A model generated the notes under the pieces. The model saw only the letters and a list, made by a program, of their open reading frames with translations. It was not told the origin of the DNA and made no database searches. A stretch of DNA of 32,007 bases from a virus. Shown in pieces: positions 1-12,962 of the stretch (its first letter is position 1; every line of letters begins with the position of its first letter). The translations under genes were made by a program, and so were the position numbers. Where the stretch lies: the UHGV virus genome UHGV-1480848. One strand, 5' to 3'.

Positions 1-18
1 ATATAAAGAGGTAAATCA

Positions 19-177
19 TTTGATACTGCTGAAAAATCCGGGAGGAAAGTGGATCAAACGGGATTTGATGGGATAAAACAAACAGTTATGACGTAAAACA
101 GTGTTATGCGCACAACATGTGATTTGATACTACTGTCGCAAAGAAAGCTAAAAACGAAAAAATATTTGATACTACTG
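19..177 (+). repeat. Three direct copies of 13-mer TTTGATACT(G/A)CTG; putative transposase end-binding sites (L1/L2/L3-like)
   Basis: Copies seen at 19-31, 123-135 and 165-177, each followed by an A-rich tract; bases 32-70 resemble the Mu left-end sequence CCGGGAGG...GATGGGAT as I recall it. Confidence 0.6.
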
Positions 178-234
178 ATTTCTGCGATTTTAACGTTTTA
201 AACAGGTTAAAAAACCAGCCGCGGGCTATTGGAA

Positions 235-819
235 TTAGCCCGCCTTCGATTCTAAACTACTTGAGAGTTTATCGCTTTCAATTTCTGCCAAAATCTCTCT
301 AACTCTTTCATCCGATAAATGATCTAAAAGTAGAGCTGCTGCACGTTTTCGTCCTTCAAGTTGGATTAGTTCTTGATTCTCTGGTTCAAGTAACCGTGAC
401 AAGTACTTAGCTCCATTTAGCGCGAGGATTTTTGATAATCGCTCTGCCTCTGATGCTTCTAAAGCACTTAGTATAGCAAGAAGGCGCTGTAGCGTTATAT
501 CTAGGGGCAATTGGACGTTTTCATCTATTTTAGGTGATATTGGTTCTATATCCTCCTTGCCAAAAACAAGCCAATCAATGCTCACCCCTTCTGCAAAAGC
601 AATCTGACCAGCTACTTGTAGAGATGGTGTCGCATCTTTCTCAAAGTAGTTGTTAAGTGTTGAGAACGGTAGCCCCCACGCCTTCGCCACGGCAGTCTTG
701 GAGCGCCCGCGCATTAACATGGCTAGGCGCTCTTTAATGCTTTCTTTTTGAAACACAGGAAAAGAAAAATCACTTTCTTTTTCAGTGCTTCTTTCTTTTC
801 TGTTAACTATATGATTCAT
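235..819 (-). CDS. Prophage repressor (c-like), HTH DNA-binding protein
   Basis: Only leftward gene, divergent from ner as in Mu; HTH-like segment SKTAVAKAWGLPFSTLNNY. Start taken at internal ATG (MNHIV...) because the ORF-track N-terminus is an implausible hydrophobic extension; alternative start 870. Confidence 0.7.
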   Translation of the reverse strand: MNHIVNRKERSTEKESDFSFPVFQKESIKERLAMLMRGRSKTAVAKAWGLPFSTLNNYFEKDATPSLQVAGQIAFAEGVSIDWLVFGKEDIEPISPKIDENVQLPLDITLQRLLAILSALEASEAERLSKILALNGAKYLSRLLEPENQELIQLEGRKRAAALLLDHLSDERVREILAEIESDKLSSSLESKAG

Positions 820-959
820 AAAGAAATATCCTTTTGTAGATAAAAACCACCAAAGAAAGAGATAAAACACCTTTACTTTTCTTTTGTAGTGATCAAATAT
901 TTATATGTAGAGATTATCCGGCGGTGTTATCCGCGCAGATAACTTTTAAGGATAAACGA
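820..959. promoter_or_regulatory. Divergent operator/promoter region between repressor and ner
   Basis: AT-rich 140 bp with direct repeat CTTTTGTAG at 831-839 and 881-889, IHF-like core gATCAAatatTTA at 890-902, and imperfect palindrome GTTATC-N6-GATAAC at 926-943. Confidence 0.55.
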
Positions 960-1196
960 ATGATGTCTATAAATGAAGTTGTTAAACAGGACTGGCACCC
1001 CGCGCATGTTGTCGCGGCGGTGCATGTAAAAGGTTTTACTTTACGCTCTCTGTCCATTGAAGCCGGTTTAAACCAGGATTCTTTAAAGAATGCCCTGTAC
1101 CGCAAATGCCCAAAATATGAGCGCATTATTGCTGATGCTATTGGTGTTGCTCCGGAGGAGATCTGGCCCAGCCGTTACGCTCGTAAGGTGGTATAA
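960..1196 (+). CDS. ner: Ner-like DNA-binding protein (negative regulator of early transcription)
   Basis: Translation carries Ner/Nlp-family motifs (DWH..V.A, IIA.A.G..PE.IWPSRY); ATG at 960 preceded by AAGGA; ORF-track start 924 is GTG without a good RBS. Confidence 0.85.
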   Translation: MMSINEVVKQDWHPAHVVAAVHVKGFTLRSLSIEAGLNQDSLKNALYRKCPKYERIIADAIGVAPEEIWPSRYARKVV

Positions 1197-1198
1197 AA

Positions 1199-3286
1199 AT
1201 GTTTGTATCAGTTAATGAGCTTGTAGGGCTACCAGGTATGCCGGGAACTGCGCAAGGGGTGCGGTATTCCATAAGGAAACTGGCCTCATCTGAGCATTTC
1301 AGGCGCAAACGTGCGGGTTCAAAAACCATTGAATACAGCATCGACTGCCTCCCTCCGATTACACAACGGGCGTTACGTGAGCGACATGTAGCTCAACTGA
1401 TGGCAAGCGCCCCGCAGGAGATAACTACCCAGCCTCCTGTAAAGCGTGAACGCAAACAAAATGTTGTACAGCCTGTTGAGGCATATCGCGGTTCGCCACA
1501 ATTGGTAGAAGAGCGTCTGAATGCGCTTACGGAAAATCAACGTAAAGTTGCAGAAGCGCGCATTGCTCTTGTCTGTGAAGTTCTACGAATTAGCCAGGAG
1601 CCGGGATTCAGTTGTGCCAGCGCTATACGTTTTATTGTGTCGCGGTTAGCACAGGGTAACCTGGAAGAACGCCTGGAATCTTTGGTCATTACTGCTAATG
1701 CCCGTAAAGGAAAAGAGCGAACTCTGAGCGCAATTACGCTCAAACGTTGGATAGCTGCGTTTAACAAAGCACAGAATGCCGCAGAACGACTGCTGTTACT
1801 GGCACCAGGAAAGCGCGACGAAATAAAACCGGAAGAAATTAGCTGGCTGCCTGAATTTCTGGCGCAGTATCGTCAGGCTAACGGCAGGCCTATGTCTGAA
1901 GCCTATGAGGATTTTGTCGCTGATTGGCAGCGTCGCCATGCGGACGAACCATACATGCTGGAGGTGATGCCTTCCTATGATGTTGTCCGGTATGCCATGA
2001 AAAAACTGCCGGAAGTGGTGAAACAAAAAGGGCGCGTTACCGGCAGTGAATACCGTCAGCTTGAAGGATTCACCCGCCGCGACTGGACAGCTATGCCGGT
2101 GAATTATGTCTGGATTGGTGACGGTCACGGTATGAAGCTGAAATGTGCGCATCCGGTTCACGGGCGTCCATTTTCACCGGAAGTTACGTTTGTGATCGAC
2201 GGTGGAACCCGGTTTGTGGTTGGCTGGAGTCTTGATCTTGCGGAGAACGTGTTCGCTGTTGCCGGGGCGATACAACACGGCATTCGCAATCATGGAAAAC
2301 CATTCCTGTATTACTCGGATAATGGTTCCGGTGAAACGGCAGATATGCTGGATAAAGAGATCGTCGGGATTCTGCCCCGTCTGGGGATTAACCACCCCAC
2401 CGGTATTGCGGGAAATCCGCAGGGACGCGGCATTATTGAACGCCTGAACCGAACATTACCGATGCGTATAGCCAGGAGGTATCGCACCTATTTCGGCAAG
2501 GGTGCTGACCGGGAATCGTTGCGAGTACTTAATCGTGATCTGCGTTCAGCGTTTAATGCCCTGCAACAGGACAAGCCACTGAGCGCCCGTCAGAAAGCCG
2601 CAATGCGCGAGCTGCCGTCCTGGTCAGAACTGATTGAGGCTATCCGTGAGGGGGTGGAGTGGTACAACAACCGCCCACATTCTGAATTGCCGATGAAACC
2701 AAACGGAAAGCATTACAGCCCGGCAGAGTTCAGAAAAAAACGCTTAGCGGAAGAAGACACTGAAATTGAGTGGCTGAGTGATCTTGAGCTGCGCGACATG
2801 TTCCGCCCGATGGTGGAGCGTCCGGTAAGACGCTGCGAAATCCAGTGGCTGAACAATATTTACTACGCGCCAGAGCTGCGTGATGAACATGGTCGCAAAG
2901 TACTTATCAGCTATGACATTCACGATGCCGAGCGAATTACGGTACGCCGTAAGGACGGTAGCTTTATCTGTGAGGCGATATGGAACGGCAATAAACGCGC
3001 AGCCTTTCCTGTCACGGCTGAATATCACAAACAACAGCAGCGTATTAAAGGCATGCGCAAGCGTGCTGAGGAAAAAATTCGTGATGCAGAGGATGAAGGT
3101 ATTCAGATTCTGGAACACAAACAGGCTGAACCCTGGCTGGATAATGTTTATCGCCCGGTTGGTAATACGGTAACCATCCGGCAACAGGATTATGAGGAAG
3201 ATTACGACGAAGATTATGAACGCGATTTCAGGCTGGGTTTGCAAAAACTTGCAGCCATACAGGAACAGGATGATCCGCTGGCCTGA
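1199..3286 (+). CDS. A: DDE transposase, MuA-like
   Basis: 695 aa directly after ner; Mu-transposase-like core (VWIGDGHGMKLK, NHGKPFLYYSDNGS) and acidic C-terminal tail. Confidence 0.93.
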   Translation: MFVSVNELVGLPGMPGTAQGVRYSIRKLASSEHFRRKRAGSKTIEYSIDCLPPITQRALRERHVAQLMASAPQEITTQPPVKRERKQNVVQPVEAYRGSPQLVEERLNALTENQRKVAEARIALVCEVLRISQEPGFSCASAIRFIVSRLAQGNLEERLESLVITANARKGKERTLSAITLKRWIAAFNKAQNAAERLLLLAPGKRDEIKPEEISWLPEFLAQYRQANGRPMSEAYEDFVADWQRRHADEPYMLEVMPSYDVVRYAMKKLPEVVKQKGRVTGSEYRQLEGFTRRDWTAMPVNYVWIGDGHGMKLKCAHPVHGRPFSPEVTFVIDGGTRFVVGWSLDLAENVFAVAGAIQHGIRNHGKPFLYYSDNGSGETADMLDKEIVGILPRLGINHPTGIAGNPQGRGIIERLNRTLPMRIARRYRTYFGKGADRESLRVLNRDLRSAFNALQQDKPLSARQKAAMRELPSWSELIEAIREGVEWYNNRPHSELPMKPNGKHYSPAEFRKKRLAEEDTEIEWLSDLELRDMFRPMVERPVRRCEIQWLNNIYYAPELRDEHGRKVLISYDIHDAERITVRRKDGSFICEAIWNGNKRAAFPVTAEYHKQQQRIKGMRKRAEEKIRDAEDEGIQILEHKQAEPWLDNVYRPVGNTVTIRQQDYEEDYDEDYERDFRLGLQKLAAIQEQDDPLA

Positions 3287-3358
3287 ATAAAAAACAGTCC
3301 GCGGGAACGGACTGTTAAGTAAAGGAAACAAAGCTGATTTGAATAAACGGAGAATAAT

Positions 3359-4291
3359 ATGACCGATATTAATGATGTTTTCAACACAATTAATGCGCTG
3401 ATTACTGACGGTGTAAAAACACAAAGCGCTATCGCCAAAGAAGCTGGCGTGTCGGAGGCCACTCTTTCTGAACTTCGCAAAGGCCGTTACAAAGGCGATA
3501 CCGAAGGGATGCACAACAAATTACTGATGTGGCATCAGGGCTGGCAGAAAAGTCTGGAGTTGCCCGGCACCCCACAACTTGTGGAAACACAGACCCTGCG
3601 TGATTTGCGTGAACTTTTTCAGACAGTGCGTGTTATGGGGTGTATCAGCGTTCTGGTGGGTGTGCCGGGGGTAGGAAAAACCGTTGCGGCCCGTGAATAC
3701 AGTAACCGCGTATCTAATACCTGGATGGTAACCCTTTCCCCTGCACACTCAACGGTGACGGAATGTCTGCTGGAACTGGCAGACGCGCTGGGAATTGATA
3801 ACCCGCAAAGGAATAAAGGCGCGCTGACCCGTGCCATTCGCAAAAAACTGAACGGTACACGCGGTCTGGTGATTGTGGATGAAGCTGACCACCTGAGCAT
3901 TGACGGGCTGGAACAATTACGTGCCATTCAGGATGCCACCGGAGTCGGGATGGTATTGATTGGTAACCCCAGTCAGTTAGCCAAAGCCACACATCGGGGA
4001 ACGGATGACCTTGCACGTTTGTTCAGTCGTTTCGCCAGGACAAAGCAACTACGTAAAGCCAAAAAGGCTGACGTGGTGGCAATTGCGAAAGCCTGGGGCA
4101 TTGAGGGCGAAGATGAATTATCACTCATGCAGAGCATCGCGGAAAAGCCAGGCGCATTGCGTGTATTAACTCACACGCTGAATCAGGCGTGGCTGGCAGC
4201 CAGCGGGAAAGGCGTTCCTCTGTCCAAAGGCTACATAAAAGCGGCTTTTAAAGAGGTTTACAGCAACCCGAAATTACTGAACTGGTGGTAA
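3359..4291 (+). CDS. B: Transposition ATPase / target DNA activator, MuB-like (AAA+)
   Basis: 310 aa; N-terminal HTH; Walker A GVPGVGKT; Walker B LVIVDEADHL; follows A. Confidence 0.93.
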   Translation: MTDINDVFNTINALITDGVKTQSAIAKEAGVSEATLSELRKGRYKGDTEGMHNKLLMWHQGWQKSLELPGTPQLVETQTLRDLRELFQTVRVMGCISVLVGVPGVGKTVAAREYSNRVSNTWMVTLSPAHSTVTECLLELADALGIDNPQRNKGALTRAIRKKLNGTRGLVIVDEADHLSIDGLEQLRAIQDATGVGMVLIGNPSQLAKATHRGTDDLARLFSRFARTKQLRKAKKADVVAIAKAWGIEGEDELSLMQSIAEKPGALRVLTHTLNQAWLAASGKGVPLSKGYIKAAFKEVYSNPKLLNWW

Positions 4292-4305
4292 GGGGATAAT
4301 AAATA

Positions 4306-4533
4306 ATGATGTCACGAAATATAAAAATGGCAACGGATGCGCAGAACTGGTTACAGGCGCGCGGGAGTCATGTAAATGAATCATATCTCGGCGTGGCGCG
4401 TCCGATTCTTGAAATCACTTACCCACCGGTGGAACTGGTAAAAAACGCGGTCAGAATTATGGAGCATAAGTCCGGGGTGGCCCGTTCTGTATGGACGGCC
4501 CGTTTTAATGGTTGCCAGATAATCTGGAGATAG
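4306..4533 (+). CDS. Hypothetical early protein (occupies the position of Mu kil)
   Basis: 75-aa ORF with AAGGGGA RBS 9 nt upstream; no recognisable motif. Confidence 0.45.
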
Positions 4534-4540
4534 CATTTAA

Positions 4541-4753
4541 ATGATGGTGATAAATATTCACGATAATCTGGGAATCAGTAAGTTAATCAACCTTGATAAT
4601 GTCAGTGTAATGGAAACGACTGTTGAGGGCGGTATTGCTTTTGAATTTATTGATGGTCACCGGCTGGTCGTTCATGTCGGCAACCATCATCACGCAGAAG
4701 ATGTGTTTTGGGAACTTAACAAAATCACAAATGCAACACCCGTTAATCAATAA
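4541..4753 (+). CDS. Hypothetical early protein
   Basis: 70-aa ORF, GGAGA upstream; AT-rich early region. Confidence 0.4.
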   Translation: MMVINIHDNLGISKLINLDNVSVMETTVEGGIAFEFIDGHRLVVHVGNHHHAEDVFWELNKITNATPVNQ

Positions 4754-4760
4754 GCAGGTA

Positions 4761-5036
4761 ATGAAAATGGCAAAAGTAATCTTTGAATTTAACAATACAA
4801 GAAATATTGAGTTTCAGGATAATGGAGGTTTTGCCGTAAATATGAATGTGCGACTGGAAGAATCCTCACCTGAGGACCAGACCGGGCCACATGATGTAAT
4901 GGCAGGCATCATCAAGAGCATGGCTCCTGAAATCATTAAAAAAGCGACCGAGGAGTTGTTGAAATCAGCCAGGGAGCTTGGGCTGGAAGCCGAGGGGGAA
5001 TTATTCAGCTATAACCCGAATGCAGCCAGACATTAA
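4761..5036 (+). CDS. Hypothetical early protein
   Basis: Start chosen at ATG 4761 (MKMAKV...) just after the stop of the previous gene; the ORF-track start 4623 would overlap that gene. Confidence 0.45.
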   Translation: MKMAKVIFEFNNTRNIEFQDNGGFAVNMNVRLEESSPEDQTGPHDVMAGIIKSMAPEIIKKATEELLKSARELGLEAEGELFSYNPNAARH

Positions 5037-5056
5037 TTCACAAAGGAACGCTGACA

Positions 5057-5476
5057 ATGAACGTCAAAATCCGAAATGAAATTCAGGCATTAATCCGAAT
5101 TCAGGAACGCAATAACAACGGTGGTGAATTACGCGAGTTTATTTGCGCCCGAAAAGTTGATGATTGTGGTGAAAAGACTTACCTGATTGCTTTCGACCAT
5201 TACAGCATCTGTGCGCGTTATTGCGGCGAAAGCATATCCCGCGCCATTGCATTTGGCGGTGCGTTCAACGTGGATTTATGGGAGTACGTCATGGACCGGG
5301 AATACATCTGCGCATCAGACCCTGAAGCCCGTGAAATGTGGCAGCGTATCTGGCGCGATTACCGGTTAATGGCAAAAGGCTGGGCGCGCTGCTGTTATTC
5401 CTCGCTTGCCCTGAAAGCGGTTCAGTTATCGCTGCGGCATATTCCGGCATCACTGCGCGAGCCTCTGCTGTACTGA
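5057..5476 (+). CDS. Hypothetical early protein, Cys-rich
   Basis: 139 aa; AAGGAA RBS 8 nt upstream; several Cys (CARK..DDCG, CARYCG, ARCCY). Confidence 0.5.
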   Translation: MNVKIRNEIQALIRIQERNNNGGELREFICARKVDDCGEKTYLIAFDHYSICARYCGESISRAIAFGGAFNVDLWEYVMDREYICASDPEAREMWQRIWRDYRLMAKGWARCCYSSLALKAVQLSLRHIPASLREPLLY

Positions 5477-5776
5477 ATGGTGGCTGACATGAAGTGTAAT
5501 CGTAAGCGCTGGTCACGCGAAGACCGGGAATTTATCGAAGCCAACGTCGGGAAAATGACCGTTGAAGAAATGGCGGAAAAACTGAAAGTCGCCACAACCG
5601 CCCTCCGGGCACATGCCAGAAGGCACGGAATATCATTGTGTGTATACCGAATCAGTGAACACGACAAATATTTATGTCGTGAACTTTATAAAGAAGGGCT
5701 GGATATTCATGTCATTGCCCGAAAGATGGAATTAAGCAATCGAGCTGTATCCAGCATTGTATACAGCGGATATTAA
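5477..5776 (+). CDS. Putative DNA-binding protein with two HTH-like segments
   Basis: 99 aa; segments MTVEEMAEKLKVATTALRAHARRHG and LDIHVIARKMELSNRAVSSIVY look like helix-turn-helix units; alternative start 5489. Confidence 0.5.
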   Translation: MVADMKCNRKRWSREDREFIEANVGKMTVEEMAEKLKVATTALRAHARRHGISLCVYRISEHDKYLCRELYKEGLDIHVIARKMELSNRAVSSIVYSGY

Positions 5777-5795
5777 TTAACAGGAGCTTTAATTT

Positions 5796-6320
5796 ATGGC
5801 TAAACCAGCAAAACGCATCAAAAGTGCCGCAGCGGCTTATGTGCCACAAAACCGCGATGCGGTGATTACCGATATTAAACGCATCGGGGATTTACAGCGC
5901 GAAGCATCACGTCTGGAAACGGAAATGAATGATGCCATCGCGGAAATTACGGAGAAATTTGCAGCCCGGATTGCACCGATTAAAACCGATATTGAAACCC
6001 TTTCAAAAGGCGTTCAGGGATGGTGTGAAGCGAACCGCGACGAACTGACGAACGGCGGCAAAGTGAAGACGGCGAATCTTGTCACCGGTGATGTATCGTG
6101 GCGGGTCCGTCCACCATCAGTAAGTATTCGTGGTATGGATGCAGTGATGGAAACGCTGGAGCGTCTTGGCCTGCAACGCTTTATTCGCACGAAGCAGGAA
6201 ATCAACAAGGAGGCGATTTTACTGGAGCCAAAAGCGGTCGCAGGTGTTGCCGGAATTACGGTTAAATCGGGAATTGAAGATTTTTCCATTATTCCGTTTG
6301 AACAGGAAGCCGGTATTTAA
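5796..6320 (+). CDS. gam: Host-nuclease inhibitor Gam (DNA-end-binding, Ku-like)
   Basis: 174 aa; sequence closely matches Mu Gam as I remember it (MAKPAKRIKSAAAAYVPQNRDAVITDIKRIGDLQREA...); CAGGAG RBS. Confidence 0.9.
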   Translation: MAKPAKRIKSAAAAYVPQNRDAVITDIKRIGDLQREASRLETEMNDAIAEITEKFAARIAPIKTDIETLSKGVQGWCEANRDELTNGGKVKTANLVTGDVSWRVRPPSVSIRGMDAVMETLERLGLQRFIRTKQEINKEAILLEPKAVAGVAGITVKSGIEDFSIIPFEQEAGI

Positions 6321-6418
6321 TACCACCATTAATATTTAATTAATTCACATTCTTTTAATTATGGCGCGATGCGTCAGGGGATTGCTCGCGCCTGAAACAT
6401 ATTACAGAGGAATAAAAC

Positions 6419-6958
6419 ATGGTTGATGCAAAAATTCTGAATGGTGTCAGCACATTATTACGGGCTTACGGACGCCTGACCTGTGGAGTTCTGGCTGAAA
6501 AAATGAATATGCTGCCCTCGTCAATGGTGTATTTCCTGCGTGATGCGGTTGATGCCGGAGTGCTCACCGAATGCAACGGATTTTATGACGTACCGCGTCC
6601 CCGTACAGAGCAGCCTGTAAGACGAAACGCAACTGAGCAGCCTGCTGTTGATGATGCGGTGTGGTGCAACTGGCGTCGCTCATTACCCTGGGTGGAAGGT
6701 AATACCATCCCTGCGCTGGCAAAAGAGTTTGCGACGGGCGTGCTGACCTGTGAGTCAGTCCACATTGTTGCTGAGGTGGATAACAGAATGTGCGAACAGG
6801 GAATGCCCCGTTTTGTGATGGCTTATATCGATATCCGGCTGGGGCGTTTTATTTGCAGTTCAAGCGCCTGGAATATCACCGACCATGTACTGCGTTATCT
6901 CATCATTGATTTTTCATCAGCACCGGGTGTGGTGCAGGAGGCTGGTTGTGAAATTTGA
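6419..6958 (+). CDS. Hypothetical protein with possible N-terminal winged-helix domain
   Basis: 179 aa; AGAGGA RBS; the winged-helix call for the N-terminal ~50 aa is inferred from its amphipathic pattern only. Confidence 0.5.
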   Translation: MVDAKILNGVSTLLRAYGRLTCGVLAEKMNMLPSSMVYFLRDAVDAGVLTECNGFYDVPRPRTEQPVRRNATEQPAVDDAVWCNWRRSLPWVEGNTIPALAKEFATGVLTCESVHIVAEVDNRMCEQGMPRFVMAYIDIRLGRFICSSSAWNITDHVLRYLIIDFSSAPGVVQEAGCEI

Positions 6959-7652
6959 AGACTGGGGTATTGATAAAAGTTGTGGCCGGGACGTCCTGGT
7001 GTACAAAAGCTGTAGCGTGATTGAAGGAGAAGATGCCTGGCAGGTTCTGGATATACTTCGTTCTGCTTTATGCAGAGCTGGCTATGTTACGCCAGCGTCA
7101 GTTAATGGCGGAACTGCCACTACCTGTATCAGAAAGCAACTTTATAGTTTTTATACAGCCTACAACCGATGGTTAAAGAATGGGGCAATGGAGACGGGCG
7201 ATGATGTATTTACCCGGGCTGCCGGATTATGTGCCAATGCTTACGATTATTTTGAATCAACCGGTGCAGACAGTGAAGCCGCATTAGAACAATTACATGC
7301 GGACTTTATCTCAGCAGGGCTGAATGAGAAATTGCCATTTAACCGGGACAGCAAACATTACAGAAACGAAAGCAAATTGGCCAGATGCCACCAGAATTCA
7401 GCACGTGTGGCATGGGTTGAAAAACACTGTATTAGTTCTGATTCAGAAATAACGGGGAAAAAGACAGTCGGTGAAACATCGTATTCGTGGCTGGGGAAAT
7501 TTACCACGGTGAAACAGGAATGCCCGACCTGCGGTAATGAATCCCCTGAATATCTGAAAGAGTGTCCCCATTGTGGCGGGCAGAAATGCAACCACTGTGA
7601 TATGGGCGATGACACGGCGTGCATGAATTGTGAAGGTGAACAGAATGAATAA
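6948..7652 (+). CDS. Hypothetical protein with C-terminal 4x CxxC zinc-ribbon
   Basis: GTG start at 6948 preceded by AGGAGG; C-terminus CPTCG..CPHCG..CNHC..CMNC. ORF-track start 6885 lies inside the upstream gene. Confidence 0.5.
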   Translation: MKFEDWGIDKSCGRDVLVYKSCSVIEGEDAWQVLDILRSALCRAGYVTPASVNGGTATTCIRKQLYSFYTAYNRWLKNGAMETGDDVFTRAAGLCANAYDYFESTGADSEAALEQLHADFISAGLNEKLPFNRDSKHYRNESKLARCHQNSARVAWVEKHCISSDSEITGKKTVGETSYSWLGKFTTVKQECPTCGNESPEYLKECPHCGGQKCNHCDMGDDTACMNCEGEQNE

Positions 7653-7953
7653 TGGCGTATTTACAAAATCCGAGGAACTGACAGCGTTGTTGACGGCGGC
7701 TGGTTTTCCTGAAGATGTGATCGGTAACTTTGTGGCGGCGGTATATGCCCCGTCTTATAACCGTGCAATTGATGAGGTCATGGCGTACCGACTCGGCATT
7801 GTTGCTGAGTCACTGAGTCCTCACTGGATTATTGAAAATCTCCGCGCTATTGCTGATGGCAACGATAAATCAGCAGCCGTTGCTGCACTGGATGTGTTAC
7901 GGCAAATGAGTCTGAAATTTTATCCTGAATTTATTCTGAGGGCCGCAAAATGA
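7645..7953 (+). CDS. Hypothetical early protein
   Basis: ATG 7645 overlaps the upstream stop by 8 nt; ends in ATGA overlap with the next gene. Confidence 0.45.
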   Translation: MNNGVFTKSEELTALLTAAGFPEDVIGNFVAAVYAPSYNRAIDEVMAYRLGIVAESLSPHWIIENLRAIADGNDKSAAVAALDVLRQMSLKFYPEFILRAAK

Positions 7954-8252
7954 ACAATGAAGATAAATTTACTCCCCTTAATATTGATAACGTCATGGCT
8001 GAAAAAAGGATGCTGGAACGTGTTCGCGCTATCGTTGAATATGGTATTAAGCATGAACTCACCGCCAGAGAAGTTCGTGACATTATCAACCGCGAAATGA
8101 ATCGTCTGGAAACATTAGTGGCACTGCAAAATGAAACAGCCCGCGAGGAGTACATCCGCCGCAGGCTGGGGTTATCAGACCAGGATATTGTTACTGACGC
8201 TCATGTGTTTGAGGCTTTTGAGATCCGTCAGCATCTGGGCCTTACGAACTGA
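7950..8252 (+). CDS. Hypothetical early protein
   Basis: 100 aa; ATGA start/stop overlap with the previous gene. Confidence 0.45.
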   Translation: MNNEDKFTPLNIDNVMAEKRMLERVRAIVEYGIKHELTAREVRDIINREMNRLETLVALQNETAREEYIRRRLGLSDQDIVTDAHVFEAFEIRQHLGLTN

Positions 8253-8303
8253 TGTGTAAATTCAGGCGGTGTTGCAGCACCGCCTCTTTCCGGAGGTACG
8301 ATC

Positions 8304-8855
8304 ATGAGTCGCACATCCCTGATTAAATTAATCCATGTTGCCCGTCGGGAGCTACAACTCGACGACGACACTTACCGCGCTTTTCTGATGCAGAAAACGG
8401 GCAAAATCAGTTGCCGCGAGCTTACGGTTACGCAACTGGAACAGGTGCTCGATGCCATGAAAGAACGCGGCTTTAAGAAGCTGAATAAATACCCCCGTCG
8501 CCGCTTTAAGGGACATGTCACACCCCGCGAGAAGGTGTATAAAATCTGGCAGCAGATGGCAGAAGACGGTTTTATTACCGATGGCGGTGATGTGGCGCTG
8601 GACAGATATGTTCAACGCCTGACCGCGAAACGCAACGGCGGACAGGGTGTTTCCACACTGGCGTGGTGTCATGGCGACACGCTGCTGACAGTCCTCGAAA
8701 CACTCAAGCAGTGGCACATCCGCTGTATTCGTGAAGCCTTTTCCCGTCACGGGCTTCCGTTGCCGGTCAGTCCGTCCGGTCGTGAACTGCGCGGCTATGA
8801 TGCCATGACGGCGGCTTATGCCCATGCCAGAAAGACACGGAGGATGGCACAATGA
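8304..8855 (+). CDS. gemA: GemA-like protein (Mu gp16 family)
   Basis: 183 aa immediately upstream of mor as in Mu; GGAGG RBS. Confidence 0.75.
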   Translation: MSRTSLIKLIHVARRELQLDDDTYRAFLMQKTGKISCRELTVTQLEQVLDAMKERGFKKLNKYPRRRFKGHVTPREKVYKIWQQMAEDGFITDGGDVALDRYVQRLTAKRNGGQGVSTLAWCHGDTLLTVLETLKQWHIRCIREAFSRHGLPLPVSPSGRELRGYDAMTAAYAHARKTRRMAQ

Positions 8856-9241
8856 CGGAAGATTTATTTGGTGATTTGCAGGATGACACCATCCTGGCAC
8901 ATCTTGACAATCCCGCAGAGGATACGTCACGCTTTCCGGCACTGCTGGCGGAGCTGAACGATTTACTACGCGGGGAATTGTCCCGGCTGGGTGTTGATCC
9001 TGCCCATTCACTGGAGATTGTTGTGGCTATCTGTAAGCATCTGGGCGGCGGTCAGGTCTACATTCCACGCGGTCAGGTTCTGGACTCGCTGATTCGGGAT
9101 TTGCGTATCTGGAATGATTTTAACGGTCGCAACGTCAGCGAACTGACCACCCGTTATGGTGTCACTTTCAATACGGTTTACAAGGCCATTCGCCGGATGC
9201 GACGGCTGAAATACCGCCAGTACCAGCCCTCACTTCTGTAA
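8852..9241 (+). CDS. mor: Middle operon regulator Mor (Mor/C family transcription activator)
   Basis: 129 aa; shares HLGGGQVYIPRG and FNGRN motifs with the downstream C paralog (FLGGRQFYIPCG, FNGRN). Confidence 0.9.
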   Translation: MTEDLFGDLQDDTILAHLDNPAEDTSRFPALLAELNDLLRGELSRLGVDPAHSLEIVVAICKHLGGGQVYIPRGQVLDSLIRDLRIWNDFNGRNVSELTTRYGVTFNTVYKAIRRMRRLKYRQYQPSLL

Positions 9242-9246
9242 ACAGT

Positions 9247-9271
9247 AAAGCCGGTTAATCCGGCTTTTTTT
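9247..9271 (+). terminator. Rho-independent terminator ending the early operon
   Basis: AAAGCCGG-TTAAT-CCGGCTTT hairpin followed by a T-run, 6 nt after the mor stop. Confidence 0.8.
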
Positions 9272-9318
9272 ACGCCCTCAATATCCTGTGATGAATAACC
9301 GTACCGGGGGAAATCATC

Positions 9319-9537
9319 ATGGGTAAAGGCTGGAATGCATCCTTTCATCTTGGCAGACGTGAGCGGCTGCGTCAGGAGGTTTTGCACCGTGTCGCCGGTG
9401 GGCCACGGCCTGCGCCCCGCGACTATACCGGTCATGATGGCACCCACGGCAGTTATTACATGAAAGGCTGGCAGTCAGTTGATATGCCGGAAATTCTTCA
9501 TCATTGCCTGCTTTACAGGGAGAAACATGATGTCTGA
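9319..9537 (+). CDS. Hypothetical middle-operon protein
   Basis: 72-aa ORF between the early terminator and C; no motif recognised. Confidence 0.35.
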   Translation: MGKGWNASFHLGRRERLRQEVLHRVAGGPRPAPRDYTGHDGTHGSYYMKGWQSVDMPEILHHCLLYREKHDV

Positions 9538-9892
9538 GCGTTCTGCTCGTCAGTGGCCTGATTTTTTATCGGTGGTGTTACTGGCGCTGTTATTGTGGAT
9601 AAGTCTGTTTTGTGGCTGGCGCGCGCTGATGTTTTGCTGTGCCTCGGTTTTCAGTGTTGCTTTATGTGTTGCCGGTGATTGTCTGGATGCGCTGATAATG
9701 AGCTGCCGGGTGCCTGAACATTTTGCCCGGTTCGTCTGGCCTCTGACCTGGCTGGGGAGTCTGTCCGGGCTGGGATTAGCCGTGATGGCAACGTCTCAAC
9801 TGAAAACGGGTCCTGAGCATGTCATCTGGGCGCTGGCCGGATTGCTGACGTTCTGGCTCTCCTTTCGTTTTCGCGCTCGTCTGTTCGGGTAA
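9527..9892 (+). CDS. Putative integral membrane protein (about 4 TM segments)
   Basis: ATG 9527 preceded by AGGGAG; hydrophobic stretches VVLLALLLWISLF, ALMFCCASVFSVALCVA, LTWLGSLSGLGLAVMA, VIWALAGLLTFWL. Confidence 0.55.
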   Translation: MMSERSARQWPDFLSVVLLALLLWISLFCGWRALMFCCASVFSVALCVAGDCLDALIMSCRVPEHFARFVWPLTWLGSLSGLGLAVMATSQLKTGPEHVIWALAGLLTFWLSFRFRARLFG

Positions 9893-9901
9893 AGGGGCAC
9901 C

Positions 9902-10021
9902 ATGTACAGAAAATTCAGTGATGAATGTTTCGGGCCGTCCACGCTGATTAGTGCGATAAAAGTGATTGCCCTTGTGGTTCTGATAACCATCAGTGCCGTG
10001 GTGTATCTTTCTGTCTGTTAA
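9902..10021 (+). CDS. Putative 39-aa single-TM peptide (below ORF-track size cutoff)
   Basis: Hand-translated: MYRKFSDECFGPSTLISAIKVIALVVLITISAVVYLSVC; weak AGGGG RBS; fills the gap between the membrane protein and C. Confidence 0.3.
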   Translation: MYRKFSDECFGPSTLISAIKVIALVVLITISAVVYLSVC

Positions 10022-10033
10022 CCGGGGGAAAAT

Positions 10034-10456
10034 ATGCAGCATGATTTATTTGAACACGATCCGGCAATTCGCCAGTTAATCGGACATATTGATAACATCC
10101 CGGCCCCGGAACTGGAATCACGCTGGCCCCGTTCGGTGGTTGATCTGATTGATGTTCTGGAAAACGAACTGAAACGCCAGAACGTCAGCAATCCCCGTGA
10201 GCTTGCCCGTAAACAGGCCGTTGCCCTGTCCTGTTTTCTGGGCGGACGGCAGTTTTACATCCCCTGCGGCGATACGATCCTGACCGCGTTACGCGACGAT
10301 TTGCTTTACTGCCAGTTCAATGGTCGTAACATGGAAGAACTGCGTCGCCAGTATCGCCTGTCCCAGCCGCAGATCTACCAGATTATTGCCCGCCAGAGAA
10401 AGCTGCATACACGACGTCATCAGCCTGATCTGTTCTCACCTGAAAGCCAGAAATAA
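10034..10456 (+). CDS. C: Late gene transcription activator C (Mor/C family)
   Basis: 140 aa; paralog of Mor by shared motifs; precedes the lysis and morphogenesis genes. Confidence 0.9.
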   Translation: MQHDLFEHDPAIRQLIGHIDNIPAPELESRWPRSVVDLIDVLENELKRQNVSNPRELARKQAVALSCFLGGRQFYIPCGDTILTALRDDLLYCQFNGRNMEELRRQYRLSQPQIYQIIARQRKLHTRRHQPDLFSPESQK

Positions 10457-10477
10457 CCGGCATCCTGCCGGTTATTT
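10451..10477 (+). terminator. 12-bp perfect hairpin overlapping the C stop codon; likely middle-transcript terminator
   Basis: AAATAACCGGCA-TCC-TGCCGGTTATTT; U-rich 3' arm; overlaps the TAA of C. Confidence 0.6.
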
Positions 10478-10480
10478 CCT

Positions 10481-10547
10481 GTCACCATAATCCCGCACCT
10501 GCCATCTGATTTTTTAGACTGCCATCAGAGCATTTTTTCAGGGAAGC
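10481..10547 (+). promoter_or_regulatory. Candidate C-dependent late promoter upstream of lys
   Basis: Intergenic region between the C terminator and lys; carries CCCGCACCT at 10493-10501 (also found upstream of I) and direct repeat TGCCATC at 10500-10506 and 10521-10527. Confidence 0.45.
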
Positions 10548-11066
10548 ATGATGGCGGGGATACCAAAAAAACTGAAAGCCGCACTGCTGGCGGCAACGAT
10601 TGCCGGTGGCAGTGTGGGTGGTTATCAGGAAATGACCCGTCAGTCTCTGATCCATCTGGAAAATATCGCTTATATGCCTTACCGCGATATTGCCGGTGTG
10701 CTTACGGTCTGTGTGGGACATACCGGGCCGGATATCGAAATGCGCCGTTACAGCCATGCGGAGTGTATGGCTCTTCTCGACAGTGATTTAAAACCGGTTT
10801 ATGCGGCAATCGATCGTCTTGTCAGGGTGCCGCTGACGCCATATCAGAAAACGGCGCTGGCAACGTTTATTTTCAACACCGGTGTTACCGCATTCAGTAA
10901 ATCAACGCTGCTGAAAAAACTCAATGCCGGTGATTACGCCGGAGCGCGTGACCAGATGGCCCGCTGGGTGTTTGCCGCAGGCCATAAATGGAAAGGACTG
11001 ATGAACCGTCGCGAAGTGGAAATGGCTATCTGGAATATCAGGGGGGCGGATGACCTTCGCCAGTAA
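10548..11066 (+). CDS. lys: SAR endolysin (T4-lysozyme-like muramidase with N-terminal signal-anchor-release domain)
   Basis: 172 aa; N-terminus KKLKAALLAATIAGGSVGGY is Gly/Ala-rich and weakly hydrophobic, typical of SAR domains; closely resembles Mu Lys as remembered. Confidence 0.85.
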   Translation: MMAGIPKKLKAALLAATIAGGSVGGYQEMTRQSLIHLENIAYMPYRDIAGVLTVCVGHTGPDIEMRRYSHAECMALLDSDLKPVYAAIDRLVRVPLTPYQKTALATFIFNTGVTAFSKSTLLKKLNAGDYAGARDQMARWVFAAGHKWKGLMNRREVEMAIWNIRGADDLRQ

Positions 11067-11436
11067 AAGTTTACTGCTGGCAGCCGTGTTTGCCGCCGTT
11101 CTGTCCGGGGTGTTGTGGCACAGGCTGGACAGCACCCGCCACGATAACCAGACGCTGCGCCGTGAATTACAGACGGAGCAACAGGCCCGCCACACTGCTG
11201 AATGGTTGTTACACGGTCAGGAACAGACGATGCAGGTATTTTCCGCTATCCGTGCCGCAAATCGTGCCGCACGGCTGGCAGATGAGACAGAACATCATGA
11301 TGCAAAAGAAAAAATTACAACCGCCATTACCGGTGACAATTGCAGCACTCGTCCTGTGCCTGCCGTTGCTGCTGACAGGTTGCGGGAACTCGAAAAACGC
11401 ACCCGTGCCATCGGTGGTGATCCTGCCCGAAACTGA
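11050..11436 (+). CDS. Inner-membrane spanin component (Rz-like i-spanin)
   Basis: N-terminal TM LLLAAVFAAVLSGVLW followed by a charged helical region; overlaps the end of lys. Confidence 0.7.
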   Translation: MTFASKSLLLAAVFAAVLSGVLWHRLDSTRHDNQTLRRELQTEQQARHTAEWLLHGQEQTMQVFSAIRAANRAARLADETEHHDAKEKITTAITGDNCSTRPVPAVAADRLRELEKRTRAIGGDPARN

Positions 11437-11638
11437 TGCAGAACTGACGGAAGCCACGCCCGTTCCGCCCATGCCACAGCCCCTGACGTGGGGTGCATCC
11501 CTTCTCTGGAATGCTGACCTGTTGATGGCGCTCGGGCAGTGCAACCGCGACAAGGCATCAGTCCGGGAACAGGAGACCCGAAGGAAAGAAATTTATGAAC
11601 GAAGACCAGAACCGGGCGGTGGCGCTGCTGCTCGCTGA
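11297..11638 (+). CDS. Outer-membrane lipoprotein spanin component (Rz1-like o-spanin)
   Basis: Starts in a different frame inside the i-spanin gene; lipoprotein signal with lipobox LLTGC; Pro-rich mature region; start could be 11282 or 11300. Confidence 0.65.
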   Translation: MMQKKKLQPPLPVTIAALVLCLPLLLTGCGNSKNAPVPSVVILPETDAELTEATPVPPMPQPLTWGASLLWNADLLMALGQCNRDKASVREQETRRKEIYERRPEPGGGAAAR

Positions 11639-11789
11639 ACTCTGGCAGGGGGATACCCGTGATATTCCCCGCCCGGCGGCGTATGACCCGCCTGTATTGT
11701 GTGCCGGTTGCGGTCGTGAGCTGCGGCCTGATGTGCTGAGACAGCAGCCGATGGCGAACTACTGCCACTGGTGCCGTGGAGCAGAATAA
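11595..11789 (+). CDS. Small zinc-finger protein (TraR/DksA-like C4 motif)
   Basis: 64 aa; CAGC...x17...CHWC; AAGGAAAG RBS; ends in TAATG overlap with the next gene. Confidence 0.5.
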   Translation: MNEDQNRAVALLLAELWQGDTRDIPRPAAYDPPVLCAGCGRELRPDVLRQQPMANYCHWCRGAE

Positions 11790-12088
11790 TGGATTTGATT
11801 TCAGTTTTAGCGTTATGGCCTTACCTGTTGCCTGTTGTGGCCGGTGGGGCCGTCTGGGCGATGCGTCGTAGTTTTGCCAGCACCGAGCGTGTGGAGCGTC
11901 TTGAAAACCGGATGACCGAAATGGAAACCCGCTACGCCAGCATCCCTGGCACAGAAGATGTACACGAAATGCGCCTGCGAATTGCAGAGCTGTCCGGCGA
12001 TATCCGGGTGCTGTCCCAGCGGGTGCAGTCATTTTCCCATCAACTGGAGCTGCTGCTTGAAAACGCAGTAAACCGGAGTAATTCATGA
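11789..12088 (+). CDS. Membrane-anchored coiled-coil protein, Mu gp25-like (releasin candidate)
   Basis: N-terminal TM ISVLALWPYLLPVVAGGAVWA then coiled-coil; position matches Mu gp25. ORF-track start 11771 is GTG; ATG 11789 preferred. Confidence 0.6.
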   Translation: MDLISVLALWPYLLPVVAGGAVWAMRRSFASTERVERLENRMTEMETRYASIPGTEDVHEMRLRIAELSGDIRVLSQRVQSFSHQLELLLENAVNRSNS

Positions 12089-12375
12089 TTAACGATATTC
12101 TGACCGAAGACCGTCGTCTGGTCATCCTGCGTTCCCTGATGGACTGCAATAACGAAGCCAACGAATCCATCCTTCAGGACTGTCTGGATGCATACGGACA
12201 CAACGTTTCCCGTGATGTGGTTCGCGGCCAGATTGACTGGCTGGCAGAGCAGCAACTGGTCACCGTGGAAAACCTGCGCGGCTTTTATGTCGTAACGCTG
12301 ACCTCCCGTGGTCAGGATGTGGCGGAAGGCCGTGCCCGCATTGCCGGTGTCAAGCGTCCGCGTCCCCGTGCATGA
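12085..12375 (+). CDS. Hypothetical protein (positional analog of Mu gp26)
   Basis: 96-aa ORF with ATGA overlap to the previous gene. Confidence 0.5.
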   Translation: MINDILTEDRRLVILRSLMDCNNEANESILQDCLDAYGHNVSRDVVRGQIDWLAEQQLVTVENLRGFYVVTLTSRGQDVAEGRARIAGVKRPRPRA

Positions 12376-12962
12376 CAGGAGGCGTGATGGACAGGAAAAC
12401 ACGGGGACGGGCTTCAAAAGTGGATTTACTGCCGGAAAATGTACGTAAAACGCTGCATGAAATGCTGCGTGATAAGGCGATCCCACAGGCCCGCATTCTT
12501 GAAGAAATTAACGCACTGATTGAAGACGCTGGCCTGCCGGATGAGATGAAACTCTCCCGTTCAGGTCTGAACCGTTACGCGACGAACGTCGAGCAGGTAG
12601 GCCATAACCTGCGGCAGATGCGTGAAATGACGTCAGCACTGACCGCAGAACTTGGCGACAAGCCAATGGGTGAAACCACAAAGCTGATTCTGGAAATGGC
12701 CCGCAGCCAGCTTTTTAAGGCCATGATGCGGCAAATCGAAAACCCGGAATCTGACGTGGATATTGACCTGCTGAAAAATGCCATGCTGGCGGCACAGCGT
12801 CTGGAATCCACGGCAATGTCCAGCCACCGGCGCGAGAAAGAAATCCGCCAGGCATTCGCAGAAGAAGCGGCAAACGCCGTCAGTGAAGAACTGCGCGGGC
12901 AGGATGGCATCAGCGAAGAGCTGGAGCAGCGTATCCGTGATGTGCTGCTGGGTAAGGCATGA
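12372..12962 (+). CDS. Mu gp27-like protein (putative terminase small subunit / DNA-recognition component)
   Basis: Immediately upstream of terminase large subunit; alternative start ATG 12387 after AGGAGG. Confidence 0.65.
   Translation: MTGGVMDRKTRGRASKVDLLPENVRKTLHEMLRDKAIPQARILEEINALIEDAGLPDEMKLSRSGLNRYATNVEQVGHNLRQMREMTSALTAELGDKPMGETTKLILEMARSQLFKAMMRQIENPESDVDIDLLKNAMLAAQRLESTAMSSHRREKEIRQAFAEEAANAVSEELRGQDGISEELEQRIRDVLLGKA

Follow-up and report, generated by a model that had tools for sequence, protein, structure and literature searches.

A near copy of the phage Mu lysis gene cluster in a Muvirus genome, with a probable TraR/DksA-type zinc-finger protein encoded by gene 24

The gene cluster at positions 10548–12088 of UHGV-1480848, a viral genome of 32,007 nt (the window), is by nucleotide identity Mu's own lysis cassette, nearly unchanged and already known. 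Taken together, the evidence makes it very probable that this stretch belongs to a Mu-family transposable phage, forms the 5' portion of its late lys operon and directs holin-less lysis, and that the small zinc-finger protein gp24 most likely has a role outside lysis. As a near copy of a published and experimentally dissected system, the cassette itself adds nothing to knowledge. For Mu gp24, whose gene is among the last late genes of this model phage to lack an assignment, the analysis offers a testable TraR/DksA-type hypothesis, which also bears on the unexplained spread of DUF2730 proteins.

Organization of the lysis region and its relation to Mu

Positions 10400–12400 share 98.6–99.0% nucleotide identity with Mu, D108, SfMu and Yersinia Mu-like phages (98.6% with Mu specifically), and the window, which also carries homologues of Mor, C, GemA and Mu gp27, is a Muvirus genome. 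The region was detected at ≥95% identity in 41 of 5,426 complete Escherichia coli genomes. All five ORFs of the initial annotation were confirmed at their coordinates on the plus strand (Table 1) and correspond to Mu genes 22, 23, 23.1, 24 and 25, which the Mu record used here (GenBank AF083977) names, after curation, SAR endolysin, i-spanin, o-spanin, hypothetical protein and releasin. The initial annotation had matched the cluster to a Mu-type holin-less lysis scheme, and the identity values confirm that the region is the Mu cassette itself. Four of the five genes have been characterized experimentally in Mu (Chamblee et al. 2022, mBio; PMC9239132), in a paper that makes no mention of gene 24.

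Adjacent genes overlap by 17 nt (22/23), 44 nt (23.1/24) and 1 nt (24/25, within ATAATG), and genes 25 and 26 share ATGA. This tight packing is not a product of chance; the whole stretch is 98.6–99% identical to Mu-family phages. At the protein level, gp24 and gp25 are identical to their Mu counterparts, while gp22, gp23 and gp23.1 carry two, two and four substitutions, respectively, which leave the known functional residues untouched.

Upstream, window positions 10440–10560 align to Mu free of gaps with a constant offset (window = Mu + 71), which places the terminator hairpin and the late promoter Plys; the latter is conserved, with two substitutions relative to Mu. The products of the middle genes 19 and 20 differ from those of Mu by one substitution each. 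Downstream, gene 26 is the next gene of the lys operon and not a lysis gene; related phages carry it alongside genes 24 and 25.

Table 1. Features of the lysis region and its flanks, in window coordinates
Feature	Position	Strand	Basis
Middle genes 19 (4 TMDs) and 20 (1 TMD), context	9530..10021	+	Mu annotation
Terminator hairpin after gene C	10454..10477	+	Matches TransTermHP-predicted terminator, Mu 10383-10406
Plys, C-activated late promoter of the lys operon	10474..10540	+	Mu annotation, Mu 10403-10469
Gene 22, SAR endolysin, GH24-type lysozyme, 171 aa	10551..11066	+	Pfam PF00959; PHROG 7 endolysin
Gene 23, i-spanin	11050..11436	+	PHROG 214 Rz-like spanin, E 5e-35; N-terminal TMD
Gene 23.1, o-spanin, outer-membrane lipoprotein	11297..11638	+	Pfam PF23793; PHROG 3001 and 456
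Gene 24, C4 zinc-finger protein, 64 aa	11595..11789	+	Identical to Mu gp24, curated "hypothetical protein"
Gene 25, releasin (DUF2730), 99 aa	11789..12088	+	Pfam PF10805; identity to Mu gp25
Gene 26, winged-HTH, VpaChn25_0724 family	12085..12375	+	NCBIfam NF050184, E 5e-38; Mu annotation

The SAR endolysin gp22

The gp22 sequence matched Phage_lysozyme (PF00959, E 1e-37) and retains the catalytic triad E-x8-D-x5-T as E37/D46/T52. The endolysin ORF proposed by the initial annotation is present; the Mu annotation takes the second ATG, at 10551, as its start, and 10548 is an alternative ATG. The N-terminus (MAGIPKKLKAALLAATIAGGSVGGYQ) comprises three Lys followed by an Ala/Gly-rich stretch; residues 6–26 (KKLKAALLAATIAGGSVGGYQ) hold five Ala, four Gly and the basic residues K6, K7 and K9, giving the uncharged, weakly hydrophobic, Gly/Ala-rich segment preceded by basic residues that typifies a SAR domain. 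The most hydrophobic 19-residue window of gp22 is not this segment but residues 103–121 (1.05), compared with about 1.9 for the TMDs of gp23 and gp25. The proposed SAR-type assignment agrees with this composition and with the behaviour of Mu gp22, which acts as a SAR endolysin, being released both by the phage 21 pinholin S21-68 and by chloroform (PMC9239132). A cleavable signal peptide at the gp22 N-terminus was rejected on the same published experiments (PMC9239132).

Only V15A and G21S separate this protein from Mu gp22 (98.8% identity), both within the SAR domain, whereas K6/K7/K9 and the triad are kept. In Mu, either K6A or K7A abolishes the dependence of gp22 on gp25, and the Gly run of the SAR domain was suggested to be possibly relevant to membrane retention (Chamblee et al., PMC9239132). 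The two substitutions are natural variants inside this Gly-rich stretch suspected of controlling retention; they shorten the Gly run, and release kinetics could therefore differ from those of Mu gp22.

The spanins gp23 and gp23.1

The i-spanin gp23 has a TMD at residues 4–22 (Kyte-Doolittle 1.93), in which both of its differences from Mu (T15A and G21V) lie. The o-spanin gp23.1 matched the Pfam LysC/Rz1-like family PF23793 (E 7.4e-15), carries the lipobox LLTGC with Cys29 and differs from Mu at L12P, I46T, T48A and I94T. Genes 23 and 23.1 share 140 nt in different reading frames, as had been read from the sequence together with the lipobox, and the two proteins show the features of a two-component, overlapped Rz/Rz1-type spanin pair. 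Amber mutations in Mu 23.1 produce the classic spherical-cell phenotype of spanin defects, and the same is reported for gene 23 ambers (PMC9239132).

The releasin gp25

Gene 25, the fourth gene after gene 22, encodes a protein that does not differ from Mu gp25 at any residue (100% identity). Because Mu gp25 is the founding releasin, the earlier designation "releasin-like" understates the relationship. The match to DUF2730 (PF10805) scored 50.4 bits (cutoff 24.9) and spans the full length of the protein, which comprises an N-terminal, N-out TMD (residues 4–22), the twin arginines R26 and R27 at the junction and a cytoplasmic coiled-coil domain of ~73 aa, as in type I DUF2730 releasins. The order proposed initially, a small C4 zinc-finger ORF followed by a TM plus coiled-coil protein, is correct. 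A lysis phenotype had been expected for this second ORF, and the Mu 25::cam lysogen does fail to lyse in time, with lysis delayed until about 3 h; plasmid-borne gp22 and gp25 suffice for lysis (PMC9239132).

Lysis mechanism and the question of a holin

In the scheme that applies to Mu, gp22 would be exported via Sec and remain inactive, its weakly hydrophobic SAR domain, rich in Gly and Ala, tethering it to the inner membrane and the positive charges of K6 and K7 holding it there. Release into the periplasm would require the membrane-anchored gp25, with its acidic cytoplasmic coiled-coil; once freed, gp22 would refold and degrade the peptidoglycan. Disruption of the outer membrane by the gp23/gp23.1 spanin complex would be the last step. 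These three lysis steps are experimental for Mu, and for the window we infer them from near-identity.

It is highly improbable that the cassette is instead a conventional pinholin and SAR endolysin system, with a holin supplied by gp19/gp20 or by gp25 itself. The products of genes 19 and 20, encoded just upstream, were proposed to be a holin–antiholin pair (Samanta et al., cited in PMC9239132), and gp25 is likewise small, membrane-located and made late; yet none of the three has a holin family match in Pfam or PHROGs, and Mu genes 19, 20 and 25, singly or combined, were non-lethal upon DNP triggering (PMC9239132), a negative result on which gp19/gp20 were rejected as holin and antiholin. Moreover, Mu lysis is delayed by DNP, whereas a holin system would lyse early (PMC9239132). 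The holin-less character claimed by the initial annotation is thus backed by the published Mu experiments (PMC9239132), although sequence alone cannot show the absence of a holin.

Gene 24 encodes a probable TraR/DksA-type zinc-finger protein

Profile comparisons and structure prediction make gp24 a probable C4 zinc-finger protein of the TraR/DksA type, diverged and truncated at its C-terminus. Its cysteines (36, 39, 57 and 60) form CxxC-x17-CxxC, the TraR spacing, and stand in register with TraR C37, C40, C58 and C61; within the gp24 family, a single subgroup shows x16 spacing. Direct searches with gp24 returned no Pfam family match above threshold, with PF01258 unmatched at E values up to 10, and the NCBIfam model DksA_like reached only E 0.019 (15 bits; cutoff 105). 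One of 13 family members matched PF01258 (E 0.035), and gp24 falls into PHROG 3260, a group of unknown function. An exhaustive phmmer search against 1.84 billion representatives recovered just three true relatives (P0001, P0003 and P0009); the other matches were long proteins with 4–8 matched stretches, of which the one examined (P0014) is a tandem CxxCG repeat, and were discounted. A word-indexed search with the family profile yielded 21 short proteins, none of which had a precomputed Pfam domain or formed a bridge to PF01258; the named ones came from E. coli, Salmonella, Citrobacter and Erwinia.

The AF2 model of gp24, built with an alignment of database proteins, reached a pLDDT of 85 and predicts a helix at residues 3–16. 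Foldseek ranked TraR bound to RNAP first against this model, on which the zinc fingers of DksA superpose at 0.7–1.3 Å. Two functional elements of the family are missing from gp24. The DxxDxA motif of the N-terminal helix, critical for function in TraR/DksA (PMC9239242), is replaced by E3-x-x-N6-x-A8 (D/K-x-x-N/Q-x-A in relatives), and the RNAP-contacting C-terminal helix is lacking, the protein ending four residues past C60 with a short helix modelled at 58–63.

Genomic context points in the same direction. In the slot equivalent to gene 24, a clear TraR/DksA protein was found in four of the six distant DUF2730 phages examined and also in Burkholderia phage KS10, and its identity was confirmed with Pfam in three phages. 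In phages HS6 and MuM16-2, a zf-dskA_traR gene confirmed by Pfam immediately precedes DUF2730, and ORFs of canonical TraR-like appearance occupy this position in Klebsiella phage Kp4866-3 and in a Mu-like element borne by an E. coli Stx phage. KS10 carries a TraR-like gene in the same slot; the protein encoded downstream of it, gp6 (TM plus coiled-coil), was considered as a cryptic DUF2730 member, but the hhalign probability was 1% and no link is claimed.

Alternative readings of gp24

Could gp24 be a generic small zinc ribbon, with a convergent or trivial likeness to TraR/DksA and a structural, nucleic-acid-binding or no role? Its score below the Pfam gathering threshold and the loss of both DxxDxA and the C-terminal helix would fit such a protein, as would weak matches of similar size to unrelated zinc-finger models (NinF 0.008, BsaP 0.004 and ECs_2282 0.009). 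We nevertheless consider this unlikely, since the family profile, run against 177,635 PDB sequences, singled out the DksA family (2kq9, E 0.0029) by about 40-fold over the next match (0.12). In addition, hhalign aligned the gp24 family with TraR-like proteins of the same gene slot at a probability of 83% (P 9e-6), with a score of 31.0, higher than that of any of 200 Cys-preserving shuffles (mean 17.1, SD 3.9). In gp24, 33 residues separate the N-terminal motif from the first cysteine, against 34 in TraR; this matching distance and the clear TraR/DksA proteins in the gene 24 slot of several transposable phages likewise speak against mere convergence.

Somewhat less probable still is that gp24 belongs to the lysis system as a cytoplasmic partner or regulator of gp25 (timer, anti-releasin or cofactor) rather than being a transcription factor. 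The 1-base overlap of genes 24 and 25 suggests translational coupling, and a small C4 protein is encoded immediately upstream of the DUF2730 gene in 29 of 29 related viral loci, besides the four of six distant phages. Furthermore, gp25 works from the cytoplasmic side and may need a further partner, and plasmid-borne gp22 and gp25 lysed cells at ~50 min compared with ~40 min for the phage (PMC9239132). Against this, gp24 is not required for lysis because gp22 and gp25 lyse cells on their own (PMC9239132), a result that also upholds the initial view of the zinc-finger gene as lying outside the standard set of lysis components. At the loci of Pasteurella phage AFS-2018a and Pelagibaca phage P1, DUF2730 has no zinc-finger neighbour, and the sequence and fold signals of gp24 lead to the RNAP-binding DksA/TraR family. 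Most likely, then, gp24 is not a lysis protein and is co-inherited with the DUF2730 gene; it might bind RNAP, as TraR homologues do, or else act as a gp25 partner.

A more specific proposal, which we put forward tentatively and regard as doubtful, is that gp24 is a minimal, late TraR-like protein that has kept the finger and the N-terminal helix and binds the RNAP secondary channel or acts with gp25. If so, the DUF2730 releasins would have a second role in transcription or DNA packaging, which would explain the presence of DUF2730 in phages with cytoplasmic endolysins. The parts that such a protein would have lost are the catalytic-site aspartate of DxxDxA and the C-terminal helix. In this reading, gp24 would act as part of a conserved block of transposable phages that comprises the zinc-finger gene, DUF2730, the winged-HTH gp26 and the small terminase.

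Comparison with known systems

The closest system is the Mu cassette 22-23-23.1-24-25 (AF083977), with which the window shares gene order, overlaps, promoter and proteins; the genomes differ in their early regions (c, ner, A and B), which in the window are not Mu-like at the megablast level.

For gp24, the comparison is with TraR/DksA proteins of PF01258 (F-plasmid TraR, lambda Orf73 and P2 Orf82; PMC9239242; PDB 6N57). Like the phage members of that family, gp24 is phage-borne, and its zinc finger lies at similar residue numbers (36–60; 37–61 in TraR), with an N-terminal helix from residue 3. It is similar to TraR in size (64 vs 73 aa) but has a Pro-rich linker where TraR has the second half of its N-terminal helix. 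Expression also differs, gp24 being a late protein whereas lambda Orf73 and P2 Orf82 are products of early genes.

For lysis, the Mu-type system resembles phage 21 S21-68/R21 and P1 Lyz in using a Sec-exported endolysin whose weakly hydrophobic SAR domain at the N-terminus tethers it to the membrane, and the phage 21 pinholin is able to release Mu gp22. Unlike pinholin systems, however, the Mu-type scheme has no holin or pinholin, and release relies on a cytoplasm-facing DUF2730 protein that depolarization does not trigger.

Identity of the lysis cassette with that of phage Mu

The genome represented by the window belongs to the Mu family (Muvirus). Five closely packed plus-strand ORFs occupy 10548-12088, as the initial annotation had placed them, in a region (10400-12400) sharing 98.6-99.0% identity with Mu, D108, SfMu, PhiR68_1 and Yersinia Mu-like phages; the window is likewise Mu-like from ~4.3 kb to its end. 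The curated Mu record AF083977 assigns the corresponding genes as 22 (SAR endolysin), 23 (i-spanin), 23.1 (o-spanin, locus tag Mu_55), 24 (hypothetical protein) and 25 (releasin), with a terminator after gene C and the C-activated late promoter Plys, both upstream of gene 22; Plys is conserved in the window with two substitutions. The features previously read from the sequence were recovered: an endolysin N-terminus (MAGIPKKLKAALLAATIAGGSVGGYQ) of SAR type, weakly hydrophobic, with three lysines followed by an uncharged, Ala/Gly-rich stretch; i-spanin and lipoprotein o-spanin genes overlapping by 140 nt in different frames; and a small C4 zinc-finger ORF after the spanins.

Residue-by-residue comparison revealed gp24 and gp25 identical to the Mu proteins, only V15A and G21S in gp22, only T15A and G21V in gp23, and four differing positions in gp23.1. 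Retained residues include K6, K7, K9 and the E37/D46/T52 triad of gp22, the lipobox cysteine of gp23.1 and the twin arginine of gp25. The gp22 and gp23 substitutions both lie at positions 15 and 21, within the membrane segment of each protein. G21S leaves the window gp22 with a shorter Gly run than Mu gp22, and a possible effect of this run on SAR release has been suggested (PMC9239132).

Features of the window, with supporting matches
Feature	Position	Strand	Characteristics
Repressor-like ORF	235-870	-	early region
ner-like ORF	924-1196		early region
Transposase ORF	1199-3286		early region; 695 aa
B-like ORF	3359-4291		early region
Gene C	10034-10456		late activator
ORF 1, gene 22, SAR endolysin	10548/10551-11066	+	Pfam Phage_lysozyme, E 1e-37
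ORF 2, gene 23, i-spanin	11050-11436	+	N-terminal TMD; Rz-like spanin PHROG match
ORF 3, gene 23.1, o-spanin	11297-11638	+	lipobox LLTGC; Pfam LysC/Rz1-like, E 7.4e-15
ORF 4, gene 24	11595-11789	+	64 aa; Cys at 36, 39, 57, 60
ORF 5, gene 25	11789-12088	+	DUF2730 protein; N-terminal TMD

The early region (1-4293) gave no match to Mu or D108 at megablast level and the remainder is Mu-like, so the genome looks mosaic, combining a distinct immunity/transposition module with a Mu-like late region. Positions 1-10400 align, starting at base 2, with Yersinia phages vB_YpM_5 and vB_YpM_6, in six pieces that cover 74% of the query. The gene C product differs from that of Mu only by T138S and P139Q, at its last residues; its intact QHDLF (residues 2-6) and QPDLF (residues 130-134) look like the two clamp-binding motifs of MuC (Ho and Harshey 2026, PMC12867686). 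Among 5,426 complete E. coli genomes, 41 carry the cassette at an identity of at least 95%. These copies are all chromosomal, with up to three per genome, and the hosts listed are animals (opossum, dog, horse, yak).

Lysis mechanism

The initial annotation had proposed a holin-less, Mu-type scheme, which is supported here: the cassette is Mu's own (AF083977; PMC9239132). What it named as refuting, a cleavable endolysin signal peptide or loss of the last two ORFs without a lysis phenotype, has been tested in Mu, with outcomes favouring the holin-less SAR/releasin scheme (PMC9239132).

The Mu mechanism was worked out by Chamblee et al. 2022 (PMC9239132). In that work, gp22 behaves as a SAR endolysin that either chloroform or the phage 21 pinholin can release, and gp23 pairs with gp23.1 in a two-component spanin whose amber mutations yield spherical cells, lambda RzRz1 being provided as a complementation test for the 23.1 amber construct. 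A Mu 25::cam lysogen did not lyse until ~3 h, plasmid-borne gp22 and gp25 sufficed for lysis, K6A or K7A in gp22 removed the need for gp25, and gp25 likewise promoted release of unrelated SAR endolysins. DNP delayed Mu lysis, as opposed to the early lysis expected of a holin system; the membrane proteins gp19, gp20 and gp25 were rejected as holins, DNP triggering being non-lethal for the Mu proteins. Proposals are that gp25 acts as a protease, by neutralising the N-terminal charges, or through either a host partner or a transient channel (PMC9239132). Judging from the near-identity with Mu, all these steps would be expected to apply to the window.

Probable relationship of gp24 to TraR/DksA proteins

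gp24 goes unmentioned in the Mu lysis paper (PMC9239132), and direct searches with the protein were uninformative. Its family is small: the short proteins recovered number only a few dozen and belong to Mu-like elements and prophages, with named members in E. coli, Salmonella, Citrobacter and Erwinia; a gp24-like C4 protein lies directly upstream of the DUF2730 gene in 29/29 related viral loci.

Several weak, independent signals converge on TraR/DksA. The CxxC-x17-CxxC motif matches F-plasmid TraR in spacing and residue numbers, and NCBIfam DksA_like is among the weak matches. Searched against 177,635 PDB sequences, a 13-member family profile ranked the DksA-family entry 2kq9 first (E 0.0029; next, 0.12). 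Profile comparison with hhalign gave probabilities of 59% for TraR, 79% for gp7 of the transposable Burkholderia phage KS10 and 83% for TraR-like proteins of the same gene slot, with the cysteines in register in all three; the score of 31.0 exceeded 200/200 column shuffles that kept the cysteines in place (mean 17.1, SD 3.9, maximum 29.4). For the AF2 model (18 sequences, pLDDT 85), the top Foldseek match in the PDB was TraR bound to RNA polymerase (6n57_M), and DksA zinc fingers superposed at 0.7-1.3 Å over 30 residues, with non-significant E-values for this very small domain.

Synteny provides the strongest argument. The gene directly upstream of DUF2730 exceeds the Pfam zf-dskA_traR threshold in Pseudoalteromonas phage HS6 and Shewanella phage MuM16-2, canonical-looking TraR-like ORFs fill this slot in Klebsiella phage Kp4866-3 and a Mu-like element within an E. 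coli Stx1a phage, and the TraR-like gp7 of KS10 is encoded between that phage's endolysin and small terminase genes. Exceptions to the pairing exist: no zinc finger accompanies DUF2730 in Pasteurella phage AFS-2018a or Pelagibaca phage P1.

The Mu-like element, inserted in the Stx1a-converting phage Stx1_JNE122137 (L036:1093-3656) in a stretch without gene annotation, encodes a SAR-like endolysin of its own, which begins MPKLPAPLRKKLIALVLAGAGTF, together with overlapped spanins, a canonical-looking TraR-like ORF carrying the DxxDxA motif (MDDSDRA), DUF2730, and gp26 and gp27 homologues. A block of small TraR-type zinc finger, DUF2730, gp26-like winged-HTH (NCBIfam VpaChn25_0724) and small terminase, corresponding to 11595-12962 of the window, is repeated in transposable phages only distantly related, from Pseudoalteromonas, Shewanella, Klebsiella and E. 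coli (loci L034, L036, L037, L038). This recurrence hints at a DUF2730 role beyond endolysin release.

Genes 24 and 25 overlap and travel together, and thus a modulatory role of gp24 with gp25 is possible; the plasmid gp22-gp25 system lyses without gp24 (PMC9239132). We hold homology of the gp24 zinc finger to TraR/DksA to be likely. A reading of gp24 as a minimal TraR-like factor whose function is linked to DUF2730 and gp26 across transposable phages appears rather unlikely. Functional TraR activity is not claimed. In place of the DxxDxA motif, critical for TraR function (PMC9239242), Mu gp24 has E3-x-x-N6-x-A8 and relatives have D-x-x-Q-x-A; unlike TraR, gp24 has no C-terminal helix, and its model predicts a Pro-rich linker where the N-terminal helix of TraR has its second half. 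Taken with the weak signals and synteny, these differences from working TraR proteins lead us to regard gp24 as probably a TraR/DksA-type zinc-finger protein in diverged and truncated form. This assignment is a modest, annotation-level hypothesis and describes no new kind of system; the cassette, being the same as the published Mu lysis system, is already known.
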